32,000 nucleotides of DNA from an uncultured archaeon. GTDB lineage: Archaea; Iainarchaeota; Iainarchaeia; Iainarchaeales; Iainarchaeaceae. The first letter of the stretch is position 1. Each line of letters starts with the position of its first letter. Positions 1-26,882 of the stretch are shown piece after piece. The notes below the pieces were generated by a model, which searched no databases, was not told where the DNA came from, and saw only the letters and a list, made by a program, of their open reading frames with translations. Both the position numbers and the translations under genes were made by a program. The stretch spans positions 1 to 32,000 of the forward strand of contig CAZNZM010000010.1 of NCBI GenBank assembly GCA_964577555.1. Reading direction: 5' to 3'.

Positions 1-577
<577 letters not shown>

Positions 578-862
578 TTAATTGTTTATTTTTTTTATCA
601 AGGATGTTGCTATTTTTTTCGCGTTTTCCTTTTTGTTGGTTGATTTTACTATTATTTTTCCGCTTTTAAAAATAGATACGTCTTTCCCGCCGAATTTCAA
701 CATCAAGAGATATGGCGTTTCTATTTCGATAAAAACCTCTTTTTCCCTTAATTTTTTTGCAAGTAATTCAAGGTTCAAAGAGTATTCCCTTTTTGGCACG
801 AATTCATATGCTGTTCTGGAATTGCATGGTTGCCCTATAAAATTGTCAAATTCTATTTTCAT
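578..862 (-). CDS. hypothetical small protein (94 aa)
   Basis: Intact ORF with an AT-rich promoter-like region upstream (863-940). No catalytic motif recognised. The segment VSIFKSGKIIVKST loosely recalls a TBP-like strand-turn-strand, but that is not enough for a call. Confidence 0.45.
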   Translation of the reverse strand: MKIEFDNFIGQPCNSRTAYEFVPKREYSLNLELLAKKLREKEVFIEIETPYLLMLKFGGKDVSIFKSGKIIVKSTNKKENAKKIATSLIKKINN

Positions 863-12720: not shown

Positions 12721-14313
12721 TTATAAATCAAACGGCACTATGCCTTGTTTGACGTATTTCTCTACAATTTCTTGGGTACAATCAGTGTCAGTATTGTACC
12801 AAGAATTAGGATCAAGTTTATATGTGCAAACTCTTGGATCGCATTTTTTGTCATCGTTAATGCAGGTGAGTGCTACTTTGACATTTTGTTGGCATTCTTT
12901 GACGAATAACGAATGTTGAATTGATAAGCAATACTTGTCATCTTTCATTGCCACTGCATAGCGGTTATAGCATTGTTCAGTGCCACTATATTTCAATGAT
13001 CTCATTTCTTTTCTTTGAACTTTGTCGCAAACTTCTGGGACTTTTGCGTCAAGCGCGATTTTTGCATAACAATCCACGTATGCTGAATCTCTTTGGATTT
13101 TTTCGCATTTTCTTGAATCTTTGGTATCAAATGCAATATCGCTAATGCATTTTTCAAACAGTGATTGGTTTGTCCTGCTTATGCCGATGCACAAATCTTC
13201 GTTCTTGATTTTTTTGGATGTTTCGAATATGCATTTATCTTTAAGATCTGTGTTTCCATCTATTTTTAAGCATCTTTCAATTGAATTGAAATCGGAAGCA
13301 TATGCGTAATAACATTCGTTTCTTATTTTTAATTCATTTATTAATGGACAAGTTGATTCGCCATACAAGTTGGTTGCAATATATTTTATACACGAATTTT
13401 TTAATTCATATTTCAAGTTATAACACGCTTTTACGTCTCCTCTTTTGGAAGCATACCATGCGCTGCAATAATCAAATGCATTTTCGTCTTTTACTATGCT
13501 GCAAGAAAAATTTGTGTCTGGAACATTTGATGCGTTTTTGAAGCACTCTGCACTCAAAGCTTTGTCAACAAAGTGGTTACATTTTTCCCCATTATTTGCC
13601 ATGTTTATTTGTTTTAGGCAATCGTCTCTTGCATTTACTCCGACTATTTTATAAGTATCGCTGACTTTAAGGCAAATATCTGGGTCGTTTGTACTTGCCG
13701 CAATTCCTTTATAACATTGGTCTCTGGTTTTAGGCTCAAAAATATTTTTACAAGTATCAAATGTGCCTATTCCGTTGTAGCAATCATCTTTTTTGGCTAC
13801 ATCTTCTATATATTTACAAATTTTGTTGTTTTTAAGTGACTTTCCCACTGAATTATAACAATCGTCTTTGAGATATGTGTCTATGATTTTTATGCAGACG
13901 TTGTAATCAGCCATTGCAACTCCTGCCTCAAAAAAGCATCTTGACTTGAATTCTTCCGACACCAAAGTGCATGGAAATTCGGATTTGTTGGAAGTTGCGG
14001 TGTTAATAAGGCAAATTTCAGCATCAAGAGGCGGGCCAGCATTGCATTTTTCTATGCTACGAACAACTTCTACAGGCACGCCAGGGTATTTATCCAAATT
14101 TATGTCGATTATTTGCTGTTTTGCATCTTTGTTTTCGTCTTCTTTGGGTTTATTAAAATCTATTTGCTTGTTAGTGTCAATATTTTTATTTTGGTCAATT
14201 TCTTTATTTTTATCCAAATTTGGCGGGTTGTCATGTTGTTTGGTTTTTAAACAGCCAAATAATACAATAGATACGCAAAGTATTGCACAAAAAATCAATA
14301 TTTTTTTCTTCAT
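12721..14313 (-). CDS. secreted Cys-rich repeat lipoprotein (hypothetical)
   Basis: Signal peptide with lipobox-like LFGC, then an N/K/D-rich linker. About a dozen degenerate ~30-35 aa repeats follow, each with paired Cys (KDDCY, KKDDCY, TRDQCY, ARDDCL, IRNECY, AYVDCY, TEQCY). Confidence 0.7.
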   Translation of the reverse strand: MKKKILIFCAILCVSIVLFGCLKTKQHDNPPNLDKNKEIDQNKNIDTNKQIDFNKPKEDENKDAKQQIIDINLDKYPGVPVEVVRSIEKCNAGPPLDAEICLINTATSNKSEFPCTLVSEEFKSRCFFEAGVAMADYNVCIKIIDTYLKDDCYNSVGKSLKNNKICKYIEDVAKKDDCYNGIGTFDTCKNIFEPKTRDQCYKGIAASTNDPDICLKVSDTYKIVGVNARDDCLKQINMANNGEKCNHFVDKALSAECFKNASNVPDTNFSCSIVKDENAFDYCSAWYASKRGDVKACYNLKYELKNSCIKYIATNLYGESTCPLINELKIRNECYYAYASDFNSIERCLKIDGNTDLKDKCIFETSKKIKNEDLCIGISRTNQSLFEKCISDIAFDTKDSRKCEKIQRDSAYVDCYAKIALDAKVPEVCDKVQRKEMRSLKYSGTEQCYNRYAVAMKDDKYCLSIQHSLFVKECQQNVKVALTCINDDKKCDPRVCTYKLDPNSWYNTDTDCTQEIVEKYVKQGIVPFDL

Positions 14314-14399
14314 AACACTTTTACAAATAAGATTTGTTTTATATTTAAATATTCTTGTATTGGCTGATTTGTAGAACTTTTTTTTAGTTTATAAATAAT

Positions 14400-14665
14400 C
14401 TCCTTTTTAATAATTATTTTTTTTAAGCCTTGTTTTTTTTTGTTTTAGTTGTTTTTTTGCGAGCCGTTTTTTGTCATTTTTTTGAATTCTTTTTTTTAAT
14501 TATTTTTTTTGCAAGTCATTTTTTTTCAGTTGTTTTTTTTGTGAGCCGATTTTTTTAAACAATTTTTGTTTGATGTTTTATTTTTTTTGCGAACCAATTT
14601 TTTTGTTGATTGGGTTTTTTTATTTTTAAAATGTATAAATTATTTTTTGTGATTTTGTTTTTTTA
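14400..14665 (+). repeat. T-tract / GC-island repeat array, locus B
   Basis: GCGAGCCG 14459-14466, GTCA 14473-14476, GAATTC 14484-14489, GCAAGTCA 14511-14518, GTGAGCCG 14541-14548, GCGAACCA 14589-14596, each separated by T6-T8 runs. Lies between the stop of pan (14678) and the start of the lipoprotein gene (14313). Confidence 0.85.
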
Positions 14666-14677
14666 GACGTTGTTTTT

Positions 14678-15856
14678 TTATGCAAACATTCTTTGCTCCG
14701 GTTTTTCTTCCTGCTTTTTTGAAAGTTTTTTTATCGCCTCATCAAACTCTTTCATACTAACAGAATTTTTATTTTTCCGCAAAGCGAACATTCCTGCTTC
14801 CGTGCATATTGCTTTAATGTCTGCCCCAGTATGTCCTTCTGTTATTTCAGCTAGTTTTCTTAAATCAACGTTTTTTTCAATGTTCATTTTTTTTGTGTAT
14901 ATTTCAAATATTTTTATCCTTGCTTCAAATTGGGGTGGCGATATTTCAATAATTCTGTCAAAACGCCCCGGCCTGAGCAATGCTGGGTCAATCATGTCTA
15001 TTCTGTTTGTTGCGCCTATGATTTTTACTCCTTTGATTTTTTCAAATCCGTCCATTTCAGCCAATAATTGCATTAATGTTCTCTGCACTTCCCTGTCCCC
15101 GTTTGCTGTCATGTATCTGTGCGATGCAACAGAATCAATTTCATCAATAAAGATTATTGACGGCTTTTTTTCTTTTGCAAGGCTGAATAGATCCCTGACA
15201 AGCCTTGAACCTTCTCCTATGTATTTTCTTACCAAATCTGAACCTGAAAGCGAAATGAATACTGAATTGGTTTTGTTGGCGACTGCCTTTGCAAGCATGG
15301 TTTTTCCAGTGCCAGGAATTCCATACAACAATACTCCGTTTGGTGGTTCTATGCCAAGTTTCTCAAATTTTTCCGGTTTTGTCAATGGAAGTATAACAGC
15401 TTCTTCCAATTCCTGTATCTCCTTTTCAAGTCCGCCAATTTGTTCAAATGTAGTATCAGGTTTTTCAATTATTTCCATTGCATTTACCCGCCAATCCCTG
15501 CTTTCAGGAAAAACTTGGGTTATACTCAATGTTCTTTGATTCATAGCCACTCTTTTGCCGGGTTCAAGCAAAGGCGCAAGTTCTGAGAGTGCTTTGACTA
15601 AAAAATCCATTCCATTGCTGTTTCTGACAATTACGTATCCGTTTTGCAATACTTCAACTATTGTCCCGACAATAAGTGGCGGGGATTTCAGTTCGTTCAA
15701 TTCCCTTCTTGCCCTTTCAAGATCCAATTGCAATTGTGATATTCTTGCATTTGTAACTTGTCGTTCAATGTGTAAATTTCTTAATTCTTCTTCCAAACTA
15801 AAAGCGTAATCGTATTGTTTTATTTCTGGTCTTTTTGTTTCATTTGTGTTAGCCAT
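14678..15856 (-). CDS. pan: proteasome-activating nucleotidase (AAA+ ATPase)
   Basis: N-terminal coiled coil, OB region, Walker A GIPGTGKT, Walker B IIFIDEID, the second region of homology, and a C-terminal hydrophobic-aromatic-X tail (MFA). Confidence 0.92.
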   Translation of the reverse strand: MANTNETKRPEIKQYDYAFSLEEELRNLHIERQVTNARISQLQLDLERARRELNELKSPPLIVGTIVEVLQNGYVIVRNSNGMDFLVKALSELAPLLEPGKRVAMNQRTLSITQVFPESRDWRVNAMEIIEKPDTTFEQIGGLEKEIQELEEAVILPLTKPEKFEKLGIEPPNGVLLYGIPGTGKTMLAKAVANKTNSVFISLSGSDLVRKYIGEGSRLVRDLFSLAKEKKPSIIFIDEIDSVASHRYMTANGDREVQRTLMQLLAEMDGFEKIKGVKIIGATNRIDMIDPALLRPGRFDRIIEISPPQFEARIKIFEIYTKKMNIEKNVDLRKLAEITEGHTGADIKAICTEAGMFALRKNKNSVSMKEFDEAIKKLSKKQEEKPEQRMFA

Positions 15857-19048: not shown

Positions 19049-19061
19049 AAATTTAGTATTT

Positions 19062-19334
19062 GTGGGCTAGTTCGGAGAGGTAGCGGCTCTCTGTTGCCGG
19101 CAACCCGCTTCAGCCGGGAACGAAGCCACTGAAGAGGCATTAACCATATATTGATGCCTTGCCAGTACTGTGAACTTCTGCTCTTAAAGACTGGCTGTTT
19201 GGGCCAACCCCGCTAGGCCTGGAAGGGAGCAACGGTAACTCATTCAGTCGGTGCTTTAAGGTAAACGGAAGCGAGGAGAGGTTAAGGGTAAACGTCTTTA
19301 TGTGGTTGCTGTCCATTTGGTGGCGCGCCCACAC
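19062..19334 (+). ncRNA. signal recognition particle RNA (archaeal 7S-type)
   Basis: Helix-8 signature CCCCGCUAGGCCUGGAAGGGAGCAACGGUA (compare the conserved AGGCCCGGAAGGGAGCAACGG). The 5' GUGGGC pairs with the 3' GCCCAC to close the molecule. GC content is much higher than the surroundings. ORFs 19140..19367 and 19300..19539 overlap it and are spurious. Confidence 0.88.
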
Positions 19335-19380
19335 TCTTGCAAAAATTATAAAAAAAATACATTTCATTTATACATTTCAT

Positions 19381-20110
19381 TTTTTTTTACTTGGTTTTTT
19401 TTGTAAGTTTTTTTTGTCTTGTTTTTTCGAGCCGTTTTTTGTCATTTTTTTGAATTCTTTTTTTTTTAATTATTTTTTTTTGCAAGTCATTTTTTTTTCA
19501 GTTGTTTTTTTTTGTGAATTTTTTTTTATTTTGTTTTAATTGTTTTGTTTTTGTTTTGGCTGGTTGTTTTTTTTTGTTTCTTTTTTTTGAGTTGTTTTTT
19601 TTAGATGTTTTTTTTTCGAGCCGTTTTTTGTCATTTTTTTGAATTCTTTTTTTTGCGAGCCAATTTTTTTTGTTTTGTTAGTCAAGTTTTGTTTTTTTTA
19701 CGAGTCTTTTTTTGATAATTTTTTTTATTTTTTGATACTTGTTTTTTTTGGTGAGCCACTTTTTTGCCATTTTTCTTTTTTTTGAATTCTTTTTTTTGCG
19801 AGCCAATTTTTTTTGTGAATTTGTTTTTTTTTATTTTGTTTTAATTATTTTTTTGTTTTTTTGAGGTTTGTTTTTTTGTCGGCTATTTTTTTTATTTTTT
19901 TTGCTTATTTTCAAGTCAATTTATTTTTTTTAATTGTTTTTTTTGGCAAGCCATTTTTCGTTTTTTTGCTTGGCCAAGTTTTTTTGTCTTGTTTTTGCGA
20001 GACAATTTTTTTTGTCATTTTTTTTGAATTTTATTTATTTTTTTATGATTTGAATTTTATTTTTTTCTTCGGTATTGTTTTTTTATTTTTCCAGACAATT
20101 TGCGTGATTT
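19381..20110 (+). repeat. T-tract / GC-island repeat array, locus C (largest motif density, internally duplicated)
   Basis: GAGCC[AG] at 19429, 19618, 19657, 19753, 19800. GAATTC at 19452, 19641, 19784. GCAAGTCA 19482, GCAAGCCA 19946, GCGAGACA 19997. Lies between the SRP RNA 3' end and the 3' end of minus-strand CDS 20057..20518, which it overlaps. Confidence 0.88.
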
Positions 20111-20518
20111 ATTTTGCTTTTTTATGACATTTTTTTCTTTTCTTTTTTTGCTTGTTTTTTTGCCTTTATTTTTTTCACTCTTTCCAACAACCCTGTTTTT
20201 CGGTTTTTTCCACGCTTCAAGCGCAGCATCAATTTTTTTTCTTTGTTCGTTTCTTCTTTTTTCTCTTTCATCAAGCTTTGCGATCAACGAATTATATTTT
20301 CTGTGAACTTCTTCGCTGTGTTTTAATGCATTTTTTAAAGAAAGCTCCAAATGCCTTTCTTCCCTCTCTTTATGCAAACCATGAAAAACCCTGTGTAAAA
20401 AACCCAAAGCAACAGAATTATCCGCTTTTGTCTTTCTATATTTGGCTCTTTCTGAATGATGTTTGCTTAAACTTAAATATTTCCTAAATTTAATATAATG
20501 CTTTTCGTGTTTTTCCAT
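20057..20518 (-). CDS. hypothetical basic coiled-coil protein with Lys-rich C-terminal tail
   Basis: 153-aa ORF. The N-terminal two thirds have normal composition with H/K/R/E-rich helices. The last ~50 aa (KKPKNRVVGKSEKNKGKKTSKKRKEKNVIKKQNKSRKLSGKIKKQYRRKK) are encoded by the edge of repeat array C. Confidence 0.5.
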   Translation of the reverse strand: MEKHEKHYIKFRKYLSLSKHHSERAKYRKTKADNSVALGFLHRVFHGLHKEREERHLELSLKNALKHSEEVHRKYNSLIAKLDEREKRRNEQRKKIDAALEAWKKPKNRVVGKSEKNKGKKTSKKRKEKNVIKKQNKSRKLSGKIKKQYRRKK

Positions 20519-21750: not shown

Positions 21751-22506
21751 CTTTTTTATTTGTTTCTGAATCCAATTTTTTTGTCTTTTGGCTTGGTTAT
21801 TCTTGGAGCCTGTTTATTTTATTTTTTTTTTGATTTTTTTGTTTTTTTTGTTTTTTTTGTCAAGTTGTTTTTTTTTATTTTTTTTATTTTGGTTTTGTTT
21901 TTTTTGTGAGCCATTTTTTTTGTGGTTTTTTTTGGTTTTTTTTGTGGGATGATTTTTTTTGTCATTATTTTTTTTTGTTTTTTTTGTGAGCCAATTTTGT
22001 TTTTTTTTGTTTTTTTTGTCAAGTTGTTTTTTTTTAGACTTTTTTTTTATTTTTTTTTAATTATTTTTTTTAAATTGATTTTGTTTTTTTTTGTTTTATT
22101 TTATCATTTTTTTTGAATTATTTTTTTTCTTGGTTTTTTTGTTTTTTTTGGTATTGCTAGCCATTTTTTTGTCATTATTTTTTGTGAGCCATTTTTTGTT
22201 ATTTTTTTTGTGATTTTATTTTTTTTATTTAAATTGTTTTGTCTTTTTTTGTGGCTTGTTTTTTTGATTTTTGTTTTTTTTGGCGAGCCGTTTTTTTTGT
22301 GGGGCAATTTTTTTTGTTATTTTTTTTGTGGACTTGTTTTATTTTTTTGTTTTTGTTGGCTTGTTTTTTTGGAGAATTTTTTTGGCAAGCCGTTTCGGAC
22401 TTATTTTTTTTGCTTTGTTTTTTGCTTGTATTTTTTTCAGCATTTTTTTGAATTTGTTTGTTTTTCATTTTTTTGTTTGGCCTTTTTTTATGGTTATTTT
22501 TTAATT
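21751..22506 (+). repeat. T-tract / GC-island repeat array, locus D
   Basis: GAGCC[AG] at 21908, 21988, 22186, 22285. GCTAGCCA 22156, GCAAGCCG 22385. GTCAAGTTGTTTTTTTTT occurs twice (21858, 22018). GTCATTATTTTTT occurs twice (21961, 22171). Spans from the tRNA-Asn 3' end to the stop codon of minus-strand CDS 22507..23337. Confidence 0.88.
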
Positions 22507-23337
22507 TTATAAGGTGTCAGAATGCAGTTTTTGTTCTTTGGCTGGCTGCTTATCTGCTTGATGACTTTTGTGTTCTTTTATTTTTTTAAGAGTCTCATAA
22601 TATGCGCCTATAACGTCTTTGAGTTCCATTCTTCTTTTCAAGCCCAGCCTATGAACTTCTTGAAAATACACTGTTACGAGTCTTATTGCAACTTCTTCAT
22701 CGCTTAGGTTCATCCAGTTTTCCTCCATCATTTTTTTACTAATCATACTTTCTAATTTGTTTTTTTCATTATTTTCTGCTTCGTTTGTTTGTTCAGTTTT
22801 TTTTGTTTCAGGTTCACTAATAATTTCTTCCGTGTCTTTTTCTTCTATTTTGATTGGGATTTTTTTTATTATTGTTCTGGTTTTTACTACTGGGACTTTT
22901 TTTACGATTGTTTTCGTTTTTATAACTGGGACTTTTTTTATTATTGTTCTCACGATTGTTTTTGGTTTAGCTTTCACTTTTTTTATGATTGGCTTGCCTT
23001 TTTTGTATGAAGTCCACAATCTTACTGCTTGTTTGAATGTTTTGCCAGCAATTAATTGCCTTTTCATGAATAAGTTGTACTCTGAAAGTTGCTTCTTTGA
23101 TTTTTTCTTTGAAAGCTTTTCCAGATTTTCTTTTAATTTTTCCATTTCTTTTTTAAGAGAAGCCGTTTTTGCAGTAACAGACTTGACTTTTTTTTCAGCC
23201 TTCTTTTTGACAGCAAAAATTGATTTTTTAAGAGCTTTTGCCTTTTTGCTTTCAGATTTAAGGGTTTTTTTAAGTTTTTTTAATTCTTTTCTGACTTTTT
23301 TTCCAGGGTTTTTTGATTTAGAAACCATTGTTTTCAC
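22507..23337 (-). CDS. Lys-rich hypothetical protein (candidate nucleoid/chromatin-associated)
   Basis: 276 aa. K-rich coiled-coil N-terminus, the segment LSEYNLFMKRQLIAGKTFKQAVRLWTSYKK resembling the first helices of HMG-box/YABBY domains, three 12-aa tandem repeats (TIIKKVPVIKTK / TIVKKVPVVKTR / TIIKKIPIKIEE), an acidic linker and a globular C-terminus. TATA-like TTTAAATA ~25-32 nt upstream. Confidence 0.6.
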   Translation of the reverse strand: MKTMVSKSKNPGKKVRKELKKLKKTLKSESKKAKALKKSIFAVKKKAEKKVKSVTAKTASLKKEMEKLKENLEKLSKKKSKKQLSEYNLFMKRQLIAGKTFKQAVRLWTSYKKGKPIIKKVKAKPKTIVRTIIKKVPVIKTKTIVKKVPVVKTRTIIKKIPIKIEEKDTEEIISEPETKKTEQTNEAENNEKNKLESMISKKMMEENWMNLSDEEVAIRLVTVYFQEVHRLGLKRRMELKDVIGAYYETLKKIKEHKSHQADKQPAKEQKLHSDTL

Positions 23338-24505: not shown

Positions 24506-25012
24506 TTGGATAGAGATATAGATATAATTTACAATTTATATCGCTGCCTTATACCTGAATTTACCAAGAGTCATGCTTTAATTTATCGCTTGCTTTGGCG
24601 GATTGAACCTTTAAGCGGTGATAAAATTTCAAAGGAAACAGGCATTTGCAGGGCAAAAACTTTTGCAATTCTCAAGCAATTAGTGATTCTCGGTTTGGTG
24701 AAAAAAACAAGTTTCAAGCCGATTGGTTACTTTGCAAGAGACCCTGTAGGTGCCTATTCTTCTTTGCTAAAAAAAGTCTTGCCTAAACTTGAAGCAGGAA
24801 AAACAAAGATCAAAGAACTTGTACAGAATTCTTCCAGCCTTAGCGGAGAAGTTTATTTAATAAAACTTGATGGCGGGCAACAAACAATAATAAGTAAAGA
24901 AACCCGTGAATCTATCACTGATAGAAAAGCTTTGGAAGAAATCAGGGCTGCTATTGATAGAAAAATATTTGGCTCAAACCCGCGCGAAAAGAAATGGGTT
25001 ATTTACAGGTAA
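24506..25012 (+). CDS. winged-helix (TrmB/MarR-like) transcriptional regulator, hypothetical
   Basis: wHTH-like HALIYRLLWRIEPLSGDKISKETGICRAKTFAILKQLVILGLVKK. Apparent TTG start preceded by a GGGGG SD-like run. Convergent with the VirB4-like gene. Confidence 0.55.
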   Translation: MDRDIDIIYNLYRCLIPEFTKSHALIYRLLWRIEPLSGDKISKETGICRAKTFAILKQLVILGLVKKTSFKPIGYFARDPVGAYSSLLKKVLPKLEAGKTKIKELVQNSSSLSGEVYLIKLDGGQQTIISKETRESITDRKALEEIRAAIDRKIFGSNPREKKWVIYR

Positions 25013-25181
25013 TCTTGATTTTTTTTGTTTAGCCGAGTTTTTTTGAATCATTTTTGTTTCTTCCGCGTGTTTTTTTTACATGTTTTTGTGATTGTTTTTT
25101 TGTAAGTTGTTTTCTTATTTTGTAATTTGCGAGCCAAGTTTTTTGGACACTTATTTTTTTATTAGTTATAATAATTTTTTT
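25013..25181 (+). repeat. T-tract / GC-island repeat array, locus E (short, degenerate)
   Basis: T6-T8 runs with GCGAGCCA at 25129-25136. Fills the gap between convergent CDS 24506..25012 and the stop of the VirB4-like gene (25182). Confidence 0.65.
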
Positions 25182-26882
25182 TCAGCTTGGCTTCGTATTT
25201 ACTAAGTTAAGTTCTTTTTCCGAGGCTATTACATTTAATGGAATATGGTCATTCATTGCGATGAGTATTCCTTCTCCTGGTTGGGCATTGAGCAGAATGT
25301 TTTGTTCCGAAGGATTGAGCATAAATTTTTCAGCTATTTGGTCAATTGCCCCGGCTTCTTGGCGTCCGAAAAATTTCCACGCGGTGTTTGAGATTATTGT
25401 ATTTCCTGCATTTGTTGATAAAAGGTCTTGCGCTTCTTGTGTTATAATAATTATTCCCATATTGAATTTTCTTGAAGTTTTTACTAGTTCAAAAATGCGA
25501 TTTGCATGTTCCGCATATTTTAGCAAAGACCATGCTTCGTCAACAACAAGAATTTTTTTTCCTTTTTCAGAGCGCATTTTTCCATGGATATACTCCATAA
25601 TGAGAAACATTATTGCTGGTTTAAGCGCTTCGGGCATTTCAGATATGTTAAAACAGACTATTTTTTTATCAGAGAATTGTGCAGTGTGTTTGTCCATAAA
25701 AGAAAAAGAGCCATTGACAAAAATATTAAGCCTGCTTTCAAGTATTGAAAACGTACGTTTTTCATATTTTGCGGCTTTCTTCAATTCTTTTGATATTTCA
25801 AAAAATAGATCGCTTATTAAAGGCGGTTGTCTTTTCCAACTTTCAGGGTTATTGTGAAAAATTCCTTTGTCACTATAAATTTTTTGTATGGCTTTGTCGA
25901 GAATTGATTTTTGTTCTTCGTTCAAATTTCCTAAAAGTATTCCGAAAAAATCTATTAATGAAAGAACCTTTTCGCCAAAGTCGATTCCGGCCATATCAAA
26001 AGGATTTATTGCCTTTCCGCTTTTTGCACTTATTTCAACTACTTCCCCACCATATTTTGAAGTCAGTGCAGAGTATTCGCCTTGCGGATCAATTATTATT
26101 ACTTTGATTCCGATAAATTGGCTTCTTAATATTAAAAGCTTTGCCAATACGCTTTTTCCCCCTCCTGAAGTTCCAAGAATAAGTCCATTATAATTGGCTA
26201 AACTGAATGGGTTTATTATTATGGGAATTTTATTAATCGAGTTTGAGCCGAATAAAATGCCTTCCTCGTCAATATTCAAAAAAGAAGTCGTAAAAGGAAA
26301 GCAGGCAGCCAATGCTGAAGAAGTTATATTTCTGTTGATTTTTAGCAAATCTTTTTGTATTGGAAGGCACGATTTTACAGCTTCATACATTCTCATAAAC
26401 GGTATTTTTGGCACTATCATTATTGAATTCATTTCAGCGCATACTTTTTTTGATGCTATTTCAAGCGATTCCTTGTCATTCGCACGACAATTTACATATA
26501 ATGACATGTTGAACAGTTTTTCCTCGCCTTTTTGCAGCATTTCCAAAACATTCATTGTATCTGCACGCTGTATTCTAAGAGAAGGGTTTACAATTCCTTT
26601 TATTTCAGCAGCGGCAAGATCCGATTCTTGTTTCACAAGTTCTGCATTCAGGCTTGTAAGAACCGAATCAATTTCCATTGGCGCACAATGAATGCTTATG
26701 TCGAAATTGCCTTCACTTGAAACTATTGTATCAAGCCAGCCTTCTTTTATTTCTCTCGGATAACCTACTGCCATGACCGGTCTGTTAAATTCATTTCCTA
26801 AAACCATCCAACCAGGTTCGTTTTTTAGATATGAATGTGTAAAAAGACTTTTTATGTTCTCCATATAAATCACTGATTGCAT
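25182..26882 (-). CDS. VirB4/TrbE-family type IV secretion ATPase (middle and C-terminal ATPase portion)
   Basis: Walker A GTSGGGKSVLAK, Walker B ILVVDEAWSLL, IIITQEAQDL, and the upstream AVGYPREIKEGWL block typical of VirB4 middle domains. There is no SD before ATG 26882. Confidence 0.85.
   Translation of the reverse strand: MQSVIYMENIKSLFTHSYLKNEPGWMVLGNEFNRPVMAVGYPREIKEGWLDTIVSSEGNFDISIHCAPMEIDSVLTSLNAELVKQESDLAAAEIKGIVNPSLRIQRADTMNVLEMLQKGEEKLFNMSLYVNCRANDKESLEIASKKVCAEMNSIMIVPKIPFMRMYEAVKSCLPIQKDLLKINRNITSSALAACFPFTTSFLNIDEEGILFGSNSINKIPIIINPFSLANYNGLILGTSGGGKSVLAKLLILRSQFIGIKVIIIDPQGEYSALTSKYGGEVVEISAKSGKAINPFDMAGIDFGEKVLSLIDFFGILLGNLNEEQKSILDKAIQKIYSDKGIFHNNPESWKRQPPLISDLFFEISKELKKAAKYEKRTFSILESRLNIFVNGSFSFMDKHTAQFSDKKIVCFNISEMPEALKPAIMFLIMEYIHGKMRSEKGKKILVVDEAWSLLKYAEHANRIFELVKTSRKFNMGIIIITQEAQDLLSTNAGNTIISNTAWKFFGRQEAGAIDQIAEKFMLNPSEQNILLNAQPGEGILIAMNDHIPLNVIASEKELNLVNTKPS

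Follow-up and report, generated by a model that had tools for sequence, protein, structure and literature searches.

The long arrays of T-runs found between the genes of this archaeal genome are best explained as satellites of one-way terminators locked to one DNA strand, which transcripts from the opposite, A-rich strand would run through as A-rich extensions; we give this reading a probability of about 0.5. The firmest part of the finding is the asymmetry in terminators between the two strands, and this asymmetry is a consequence of strand bias. The bias has almost cleared T-runs from the A-rich strand, and so about three quarters of the genes encoded there (A-strand genes, as opposed to the T-strand genes of the T-rich strand) lack any downstream T-run of at least 5.

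The window is a stretch of 32 kb, the first of contig C10, in a genome (G000) of 0.98 Mb that is assembled in 15 contigs and is 95.5% complete. It contains five T-rich intergenic regions (arrays A to E), each with 60-69% T and together holding 162 T-runs of at least 5 in 2,587 nt. The arrays and the genes next to them are as follows, T-runs being counted from a length of 5.

1..577, plus strand: array A, 38 T-runs; truncated by the contig start, its right end being the stop of ORF 578..862
578..862, minus strand: ORF of 94 aa with a weak TBP-repeat match; stop TAA abuts array A
14314..14677, plus strand: array B, 20 T-runs; lies between two tandem minus-strand genes
14678..15856, minus strand: pan, proteasome-activating AAA ATPase (AAA domain, 2.5e-45, and OB domain); stop TAA inside a T-run
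19060..19334, plus strand: SRP RNA, immediately upstream of array C
19335..20056, plus strand: array C, 722 nt, 45 T-runs; spacer 3' of the SRP RNA
20057..20518, minus strand: ORF of 153 aa; stop TAA abuts array C
21752..22506, plus strand: array D, 755 nt, 50 T-runs, 69% T
22507..23337, minus strand: gene for a Lys-rich protein with homologues in relatives (5e-47); stop TAA abuts array D
24506..25012, plus strand: gene for a TrmB-like wHTH regulator; T8 run 8 nt 3' of the stop
25013..25181, plus strand: array E, a 169-nt spacer between convergent genes, 9 T-runs, 60% T
25182..26882, minus strand: gene for a TraG/VirB4-type P-loop ATPase (5e-21); stop TGA (25182-25184) touches the final T-run of array E

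The right edge of all five arrays coincides with the stop codon of a minus-strand ORF, the final T-run touching or overlapping the stop triplet: the plus strand reads TTA at 578-580, 14678-14680, 20057-20059 and 22507-22509, and TCA at 25182-25184 for the VirB4-like ORF, these being the reverse complements of the minus-strand stops. In the RNA 3' of the five minus-strand genes, U-runs of at least 5 are absent for 169 to 755 nt, and none was found downstream of the VirB4-like gene. When the complete intergenic regions were scanned for plus-strand A-runs of at least 5, arrays A, B, D and E returned zero, and array C only an A5 (19341-19345) and an A8 (19350-19357), located 699 nt from the minus-strand stop. 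The initial annotation, which had reported no such run in B, D or E and had placed that of C next to the SRP RNA, was exact on this point. The A5 and A8 adjoin the 3' end of the SRP RNA, where the minus strand reads T8/T5, and these minus-strand runs would shield the SRP RNA gene from antisense read-through.

The individual arrays differ in their surroundings. Array B has no plus-strand gene directly upstream, and about 65 nt beside the gene 12721..14313 are kept free and carry a TATA-like box. Array D extends from the first base after tRNA-Asn to the stop of the gene 22507..23337. Array E, in which a GCGAGCC core occurs once, at about 25130, and plus-strand A-runs of at least 4 are absent, has the make-up of a canonical multi-terminator, and is predicted to act as such for the TrmB-like gene. 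Regarding two of the abutting ORFs, the similarity of 578..862 is limited to a single TBP repeat and does not reach the Pfam cut-off (E = 1.9e-4), the ORF having half of the normal two-repeat TBP length, and 20057..20518 has homologues in two genomes of the same genus (4e-15), together with a weak match in one genome of the same family. Moreover, the contig begins within a T-run some 45 nt long (window 1-55), and contig ends are touched by 11 arrays; the assembly seems to break at arrays, the number and length of which are probably underestimated.

Array polarity was found to be uniform along each contig, with 48 T-rich and 0 A-rich arrays on C2, 41 and 0 on C3, and 0 and 53 on C4. On these three contigs, the orientation of a gene has no influence on the T/G versus A/C strand bias: whichever way the genes point, 45-57% of their third codon positions are T (or A) on one and the same DNA strand; the genes themselves are split evenly by strand (239 versus 242), and runs of six or more T occur on C2 about once per 122 nt. 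Altogether, these results show that the strand of an array is set by the chromosome-scale T/G versus A/C bias and not by the neighbouring gene. Since polarity is a property of the whole contig, the finding of five arrays on the same strand of the window carries no information on the genes beside them, as on this contig the plus strand would be the T-rich one of any array. A single sharp switch of polarity was detected, on C1 at about 149-150 kb. Within C1 ~147,200-150,500, an abrupt reversal affects TA skew as well as array polarity: an array of A-runs, 0.8 kb long, occupies 147.2-148.0 kb, and T-run arrays start from 150 kb; no Orc1/Cdc6 gene was found near this region, which could correspond to a replication origin, a terminus or a rearrangement. 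As the Orc1/Cdc6 genes lie away from the switch (C1 ~61 kb and C4 ~16-17 kb), and ribosomal protein L2 and rpoB are located on the A-rich strand, the leading strand is not assignable.

We then focused our attention on the composition of the arrays. Using a strict definition that is blind to genes (five or more T6 runs separated by no more than 30 nt, with a T content of 60% or higher), about 135 arrays covering 42.8 kb were identified genome-wide, while 155 intergenic regions contain at least four T6 runs; overall, arrays represent 4-6% of the 0.98-Mb genome. The T-rich strand of the strict arrays is composed of 66% T, 14% G, 12.5% A and 7% C. In these 135 arrays, the length of the T-runs peaks at 7-8 (764 T7 versus 268 in shuffled sequences, and 963 T8 versus 172) and runs above 10 are nearly absent, those of at least 11 being observed 10 times against more than 130 expected. 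This peak and the cut-off at 10, when compared to the shuffles, rule out composition alone as the explanation for the arrays. Their units consist of T7-9 runs separated by short G-led spacers (G is the next base after the run in 67% of cases), and the spacing from run start to run start has a broad mode near 16 nt (13-17 nt); with such spacing, and with no period of 10-11 nt, A-tract phasing and DNA curvature could also be ruled out. The T strand of the arrays carries 159 copies of a GYGAGCC core, and none was found in reverse. In addition, TRF detected internal duplications with repeat units of 14-159 nt at 64-100% match, and the arrays can be classed as tandem or satellite repeats, their copies being arranged head to tail and varying between relatives. 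Spread by a retro-element was considered and rejected, no reverse transcriptase domain having been found. A metagenome scan for the core unit, seeking another strain, returned only isolated chance matches on unrelated contigs, and our literature search found no description of such arrays in archaea.

To evaluate the terminators available to each strand, T-runs downstream of genes were counted on the strongly skewed contigs of this genome and of its sister species (G002), giving the following values:

G000, T-strand genes: T-run of at least 5 in the downstream spacer in 88%, within 30 nt of the stop in 71%
G000, A-strand genes: in the downstream spacer in 26%, within 30 nt of the stop in 7%
G002, T-strand genes: in the downstream spacer in 82%, within 30 nt of the stop in 69%
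G002, A-strand genes: in the downstream spacer in 28%, within 30 nt of the stop in 10%

An A-run of at least 6 instead follows 76% of the A-strand genes of G000, and 81% of A-strand genes end in TAA, running straight into the A-run, compared to 28% of T-strand genes, which mostly use TGA. The T-runs also extend past the stops into the 3' ends of A-strand genes, generating Lys-rich C-termini (e.g., at 578-600 and 14678-14732). The suggestion that the minus-strand genes abutting the arrays have no oligo-U terminator of their own was therefore borne out, and generalises to the strongly skewed contigs, with the 7% given above. Within the window, the upstream plus-strand features (the TrmB-like gene, tRNA-Asn and the SRP RNA) are all followed by T-runs, and the abutting minus-strand genes have no own-strand T-run of at least 5 downstream, except at a distance of 699 nt in the case of array C. 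For pan, the 360 nt downstream contain no T5 and 17 A6 runs, and PAN orthologues in relatives carry a T5-7 within 35 nt of the stop in 7 of 17 near-full-length cases (L002, L004, L006, L007, L009, L011 and L012). Hairpin terminators for the minus-strand genes were ruled out as well: 150-nt RNA folds 3' of the five genes reach -4 to -17 kcal/mol and in four of them are no better than shuffles, with z-scores of 0.5 to -1.3 that indicate unstructured RNA in the A direction, and no hairpin followed by a U-run was found in the 150 nt downstream of any of the five. A literature search likewise found no description of strand-specific terminator loss in archaea.

The position of the arrays relative to genes was then analyzed across the whole genome, taking as genes our own calls of longest non-overlapping ORFs instead of the output of a trained gene finder; ORFs coding for poly-Phe or poly-Lys were discarded, and tRNAs were included. 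Drawing the T-rich strand from left to right, 124 arrays could be classified, of which 47 lie in convergent (-> <-) spacers, 44 in tandem (<- <-) spacers, 17 in tandem (-> ->) spacers and 16 in divergent (<- ->) spacers. The right-hand gene is on the opposite strand, with its 3' end facing the array, in 91 of 124 cases (73%; binomial p = 1.9e-7 versus an expectation of about 50%, which is the share of spacers with an opposite-strand right-hand gene), and the other 33 arrays face the 5' end of a T-strand gene. The left-hand gene, on the other hand, is on the T strand in 64 of 124 cases (52%, p = 0.79), which is no preference. Thus, the initial annotation, according to which every array abuts the stop codon of a minus-strand gene, was correct for the window (5/5), but its "every" does not extend to the genome, and the genome-wide statistics that it had proposed reveal a preference for the 3' ends of A-strand genes only, with none behind T-strand genes. 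Likewise, the proportion rises only to 76% (61/80, p = 2.7e-6) when both flanking genes are of at least 150 aa, and the sister species shows no preference (18/38). At a genome rate of 0.73, five out of five in one window has a probability of about 0.2, and such placement is unremarkable.

The preference for A-strand 3' ends was observed for arrays of every size class (64-80%) and on the majority of contigs. Moreover, it is not due to the arrays bearing the GYGAGCC core only, as it was found in 57 of 83 arrays with the core and in 34 of 41 without it. As spurious ORFs are likelier on the stop-poor T strand, gene-calling errors should weaken the bias and not create it. The exceptions are real, too: six of ten right-hand T-strand genes tested against Pfam had strong matches (PEP synthase/PPDK, NadA, ABC ATPase, GH130, FtsZ and riboflavin kinase). 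Arrays lie flush with A-strand stops (median gap of -2 to 8 nt), begin 13-17 nt from T-strand stops, and leave 45-80 nt free where the 5' end of a gene faces them. These observations show that arrays fill the intergenic space up to the stops and spare some 45-80 nt of promoter room. Among spacers of at least 60 nt, arrays are present in 60% of the convergent, in 41% and 29% of the tandem, and in 30% of the divergent ones. Terminators of upstream genes on the same strand cannot be the whole explanation, given that a T-strand gene lies upstream in 52% only and that (<- <-) spacers hold 44 arrays against 17 in (-> ->) spacers. Overall, the placement of arrays behind A-strand genes is a strong preference and not a rule.

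Comparison with the sister species, for which 608 kb were analyzed in the same way, helped to separate the bias from the arrays. In G002, TA skew reaches up to +/-0.39 and GC skew is likewise extreme (contigs C2, C8, C14 and C16), but its arrays are small and lack the positional preference seen here (18/38; Fisher p = 0.005 versus G000), with 10 (<- <-) against 10 (-> ->) arrays in the tandem classes. The strand bias is, therefore, at least genus-wide, and large arrays are not. A genus-wide need for longer 3' spacers behind A-strand genes was discarded, the spacers of G002 showing no difference in length between the two strands. In agreement with a restricted distribution, triplets of T7 number 1,355 here, compared to 114 and 80 in two genomes of the same genus and at most 73 in others; the GYGAGCC-T-run unit has 47 matches here and 0 in the 30 relatives searched; and arrays are absent from the PAN orthologous site in 17 relatives. 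Taken together, the comparison with G002 and the relatives indicates that large, position-biased arrays are a recent feature of this lineage. Moreover, as G002 has the same deficit of terminators and neither large arrays nor a positional bias, arrays are not required to cope with missing terminators.

Judged by sequence, the arrays present a stack of canonical archaeal oligo-U terminators in the T direction, the activity of which we infer, and offer none in the A direction. The initial annotation had pointed out that plus-strand polymerases would face dozens of oligo-T signals before entering the minus-strand genes in antisense, and as far as the letters go this is true. Polymerases leaving A-strand genes, in turn, would enter the array and generate A-rich, unstructured 3' extensions, with inefficient stopping at weak U-containing sites, with the help of FttA/aCPSF1; in tandem pairs, a stop could take place at a U4-5 tract in the TATA/5' region of the next gene, and transcription would otherwise read through. 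The array may thereby represent a spacer for poorly terminated A-strand polymerases and, at the same time, a one-way barrier keeping T-direction transcription from antisense entry into the A-strand gene. In A-strand tandem spacers, 47 of 97 own-strand runs of at least four T fall within the 60 nt preceding the next start codon, a zone that represents about 22% of spacer length and carries TATA-like boxes of the TTTTTAAA type. With such clustering, the first usable U-tract is often beyond the array, which would fit transcripts that cross the whole of it.

The genome encodes a full-length FttA/aCPSF1 orthologue (TIGR03675, C1:78217-80097, 843 bits versus a cut-off of 580), as well as an exosome RNase PH gene pair. 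U-rich RNA is the preferred target of FttA, both for binding and for cleavage (PMC11616081). The more U4 tracts a unit of M. maripaludis has, the more efficient is its termination, units with none still reaching about 30%, and consecutive termination sites have been reported to be common in archaea (PMC8716108). Considering the U-preference of FttA and the M. maripaludis data, inefficient termination distributed over a long spacer is plausible. Nevertheless, the preference of FttA also counts against this reading of the arrays as one-way terminators: RNA from the A direction of an array, with about 66% A and 12% U, lacks the U-richness that FttA requires (PMC11616081) and would be a poor substrate. 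Both known archaeal routes, intrinsic and FttA-dependent, favour U-rich RNA, and neither accounts for the termination of A-strand genes. It also counts against the same reading that the sister species shares the deficit of terminators without large arrays, that neither a spacer nor a barrier would have a role for the 27% of arrays located before a T-strand gene or in a divergent spacer, and that dozens of T8 runs far exceed what termination in the T direction would need.

Alternatively, the arrays may have no function at all and be a neutral satellite, generated by slippage and segmental duplication under T-biased mutation and persisting where harmless, a possibility that we regard as credible although rather unlikely. 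The positional preference could in that case reflect survival, arrays being rarer in (-> ->) spacers because they would cut T-strand operons there, or growth, expansion being faster where read-through in the A direction makes R-loop-prone, purine-rich RNA on a pyrimidine-rich template, as with GAA.TTC repeats. In agreement with this, arrays are young and lineage-specific, as judged from the counts of T7 triplets (1,355 versus 114, 80 and at most 73) and of the GYGAGCC-T-run unit (47 versus 0 in 30 relatives), contain the internal duplications of 14-159-nt units, occupy all four spacer classes with a frequency (given above) that grows with the number of 3' ends per spacer, and are dispensable in their large form to the sister species. 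However, neither composition nor free slippage would produce a distribution of run lengths with so sharp a peak at 7-8 and an upper limit of 10, and 4-6% of a 0.98-Mb genome is a large load. As to survival, most (<- <-) arrays spare 45-80 nt of promoter room, which points to unit boundaries and not to operon interiors, and G002 should feel the same operon constraint, yet shows 10 (<- <-) against 10 (-> ->) arrays.

The RNA-DNA hybrid of the transcription elongation complex is 8 bp long, matching the optimum of the run lengths, and it is conceivable that each 8-bp rA:dT hybrid gives a low-probability pause, slip or release, so that dozens of them sum to efficient termination of A-strand genes and make up for the lack of oligo-T signals, which the bias does not permit on the A-rich strand. 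Such cumulative weak terminators would predict both the preference for A-strand 3' ends and the start of the arrays at the stop codon, and would account for a copy number that is superfluous in the T direction. To our knowledge, however, no archaeal, bacterial or eukaryotic polymerase terminates at oligo-A in the RNA; studies of archaeal termination (PMC8716108, PMC11616081, PMC13675443) describe U/T-rich signals only, 27% of the arrays are not behind A-strand genes, and G002 lacks such arrays despite the same deficit; we consider this mode of action very doubtful. In a broader form, a compensatory invention would end half of the genes by a U-independent route, in A-rich unstructured zones that begin at the stop codon, through serial 8-bp rA:dT hybrids or a factor for A-rich RNA, and the A-rich tails may mark RNA for the exosome; this, too, we consider improbable. 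Archaeal primases work well on poly-dT templates, and the T-runs might, finally, act in replication on one template strand, as primase start zones or as fork buffers before head-on genes. The strict contig-wide polarity with one sharp switch, the T6+ runs about every 122 nt on C2 and the poly-dT activity of the primases could be seen in this light, but mutational strand bias explains the polarity equally, the Orc1/Cdc6 genes (C1 ~61 kb, C4 ~16-17 kb) are off the switch, L2 and rpoB are on the A-rich strand, and arrays are clustered with uneven spacing. We therefore hold a role in replication to be very remote.

All archaeal termination routes described so far, either intrinsic or FttA/aCPSF1-assisted, depend on U-rich RNA, and here are two related species in which about three quarters of the genes encoded on one strand have no U-tract downstream; in G000, moreover, hundreds of T8 units lie directly behind A-strand genes, on the wrong strand for stopping them. 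These genomes represent a natural test case for whether an archaeal RNA polymerase can be stopped in the absence of U-tracts, for the level of read-through and of antisense transcription that a minimal genome can bear, and for how extreme mutational strand bias reshapes regulatory signals besides codons.

Among known systems, the arrays invite comparison with archaeal intrinsic oligo-T terminators (Santangelo and Reeve 2006, as cited in PMC13675443; Term-seq of M. maripaludis, PMC8716108, citing Dar et al. 2016). As in these, non-template runs of T5-9 start within about 10-20 nt of the ends of T-strand genes, tRNA and SRP RNA, and several tracts follow in a row, more tracts having been reported to give higher efficiency. 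Unlike these terminators, with their 1-4 tracts, arrays have 10-50 tracts in a stretch of 170-880 nt and a GYGAGCC core in the same orientation, have no upstream gene on the same strand in half of the cases, and are enriched behind opposite-strand genes, which they do not terminate. FttA/aCPSF1 termination (PMC11616081, PMC7515710, PMC8716108) is the only known factor route for genes without intrinsic signals, and its orthologue is encoded here; its signal is, however, U-rich RNA (U at -23, U-rich from -30 to -36), from which the array RNA of the A direction (~66% A, 12% U) differs. Bidirectional bacterial intrinsic terminators, to the extent that Ju et al. 2019 is described in PMC13675443, resemble array E and its counterparts in being a single intergenic element between convergent genes, but the arrays contain no hairpin with an A-run on one side and a U-run on the other and are strictly one-directional. 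Lastly, the asymmetry associated with replication, with its separate codon usage, in Borrelia-type chromosomes and in the H/L strands of vertebrate mitochondria shares with the present genome a T/G versus A/C bias that is independent of orientation over at least 100 kb and determines the strand on which T-runs can occur; a difference, of which our searches found no earlier description, is that the bias seen here is strong enough to strip oligo-T terminators, a class of regulatory signal, from the genes of one strand.
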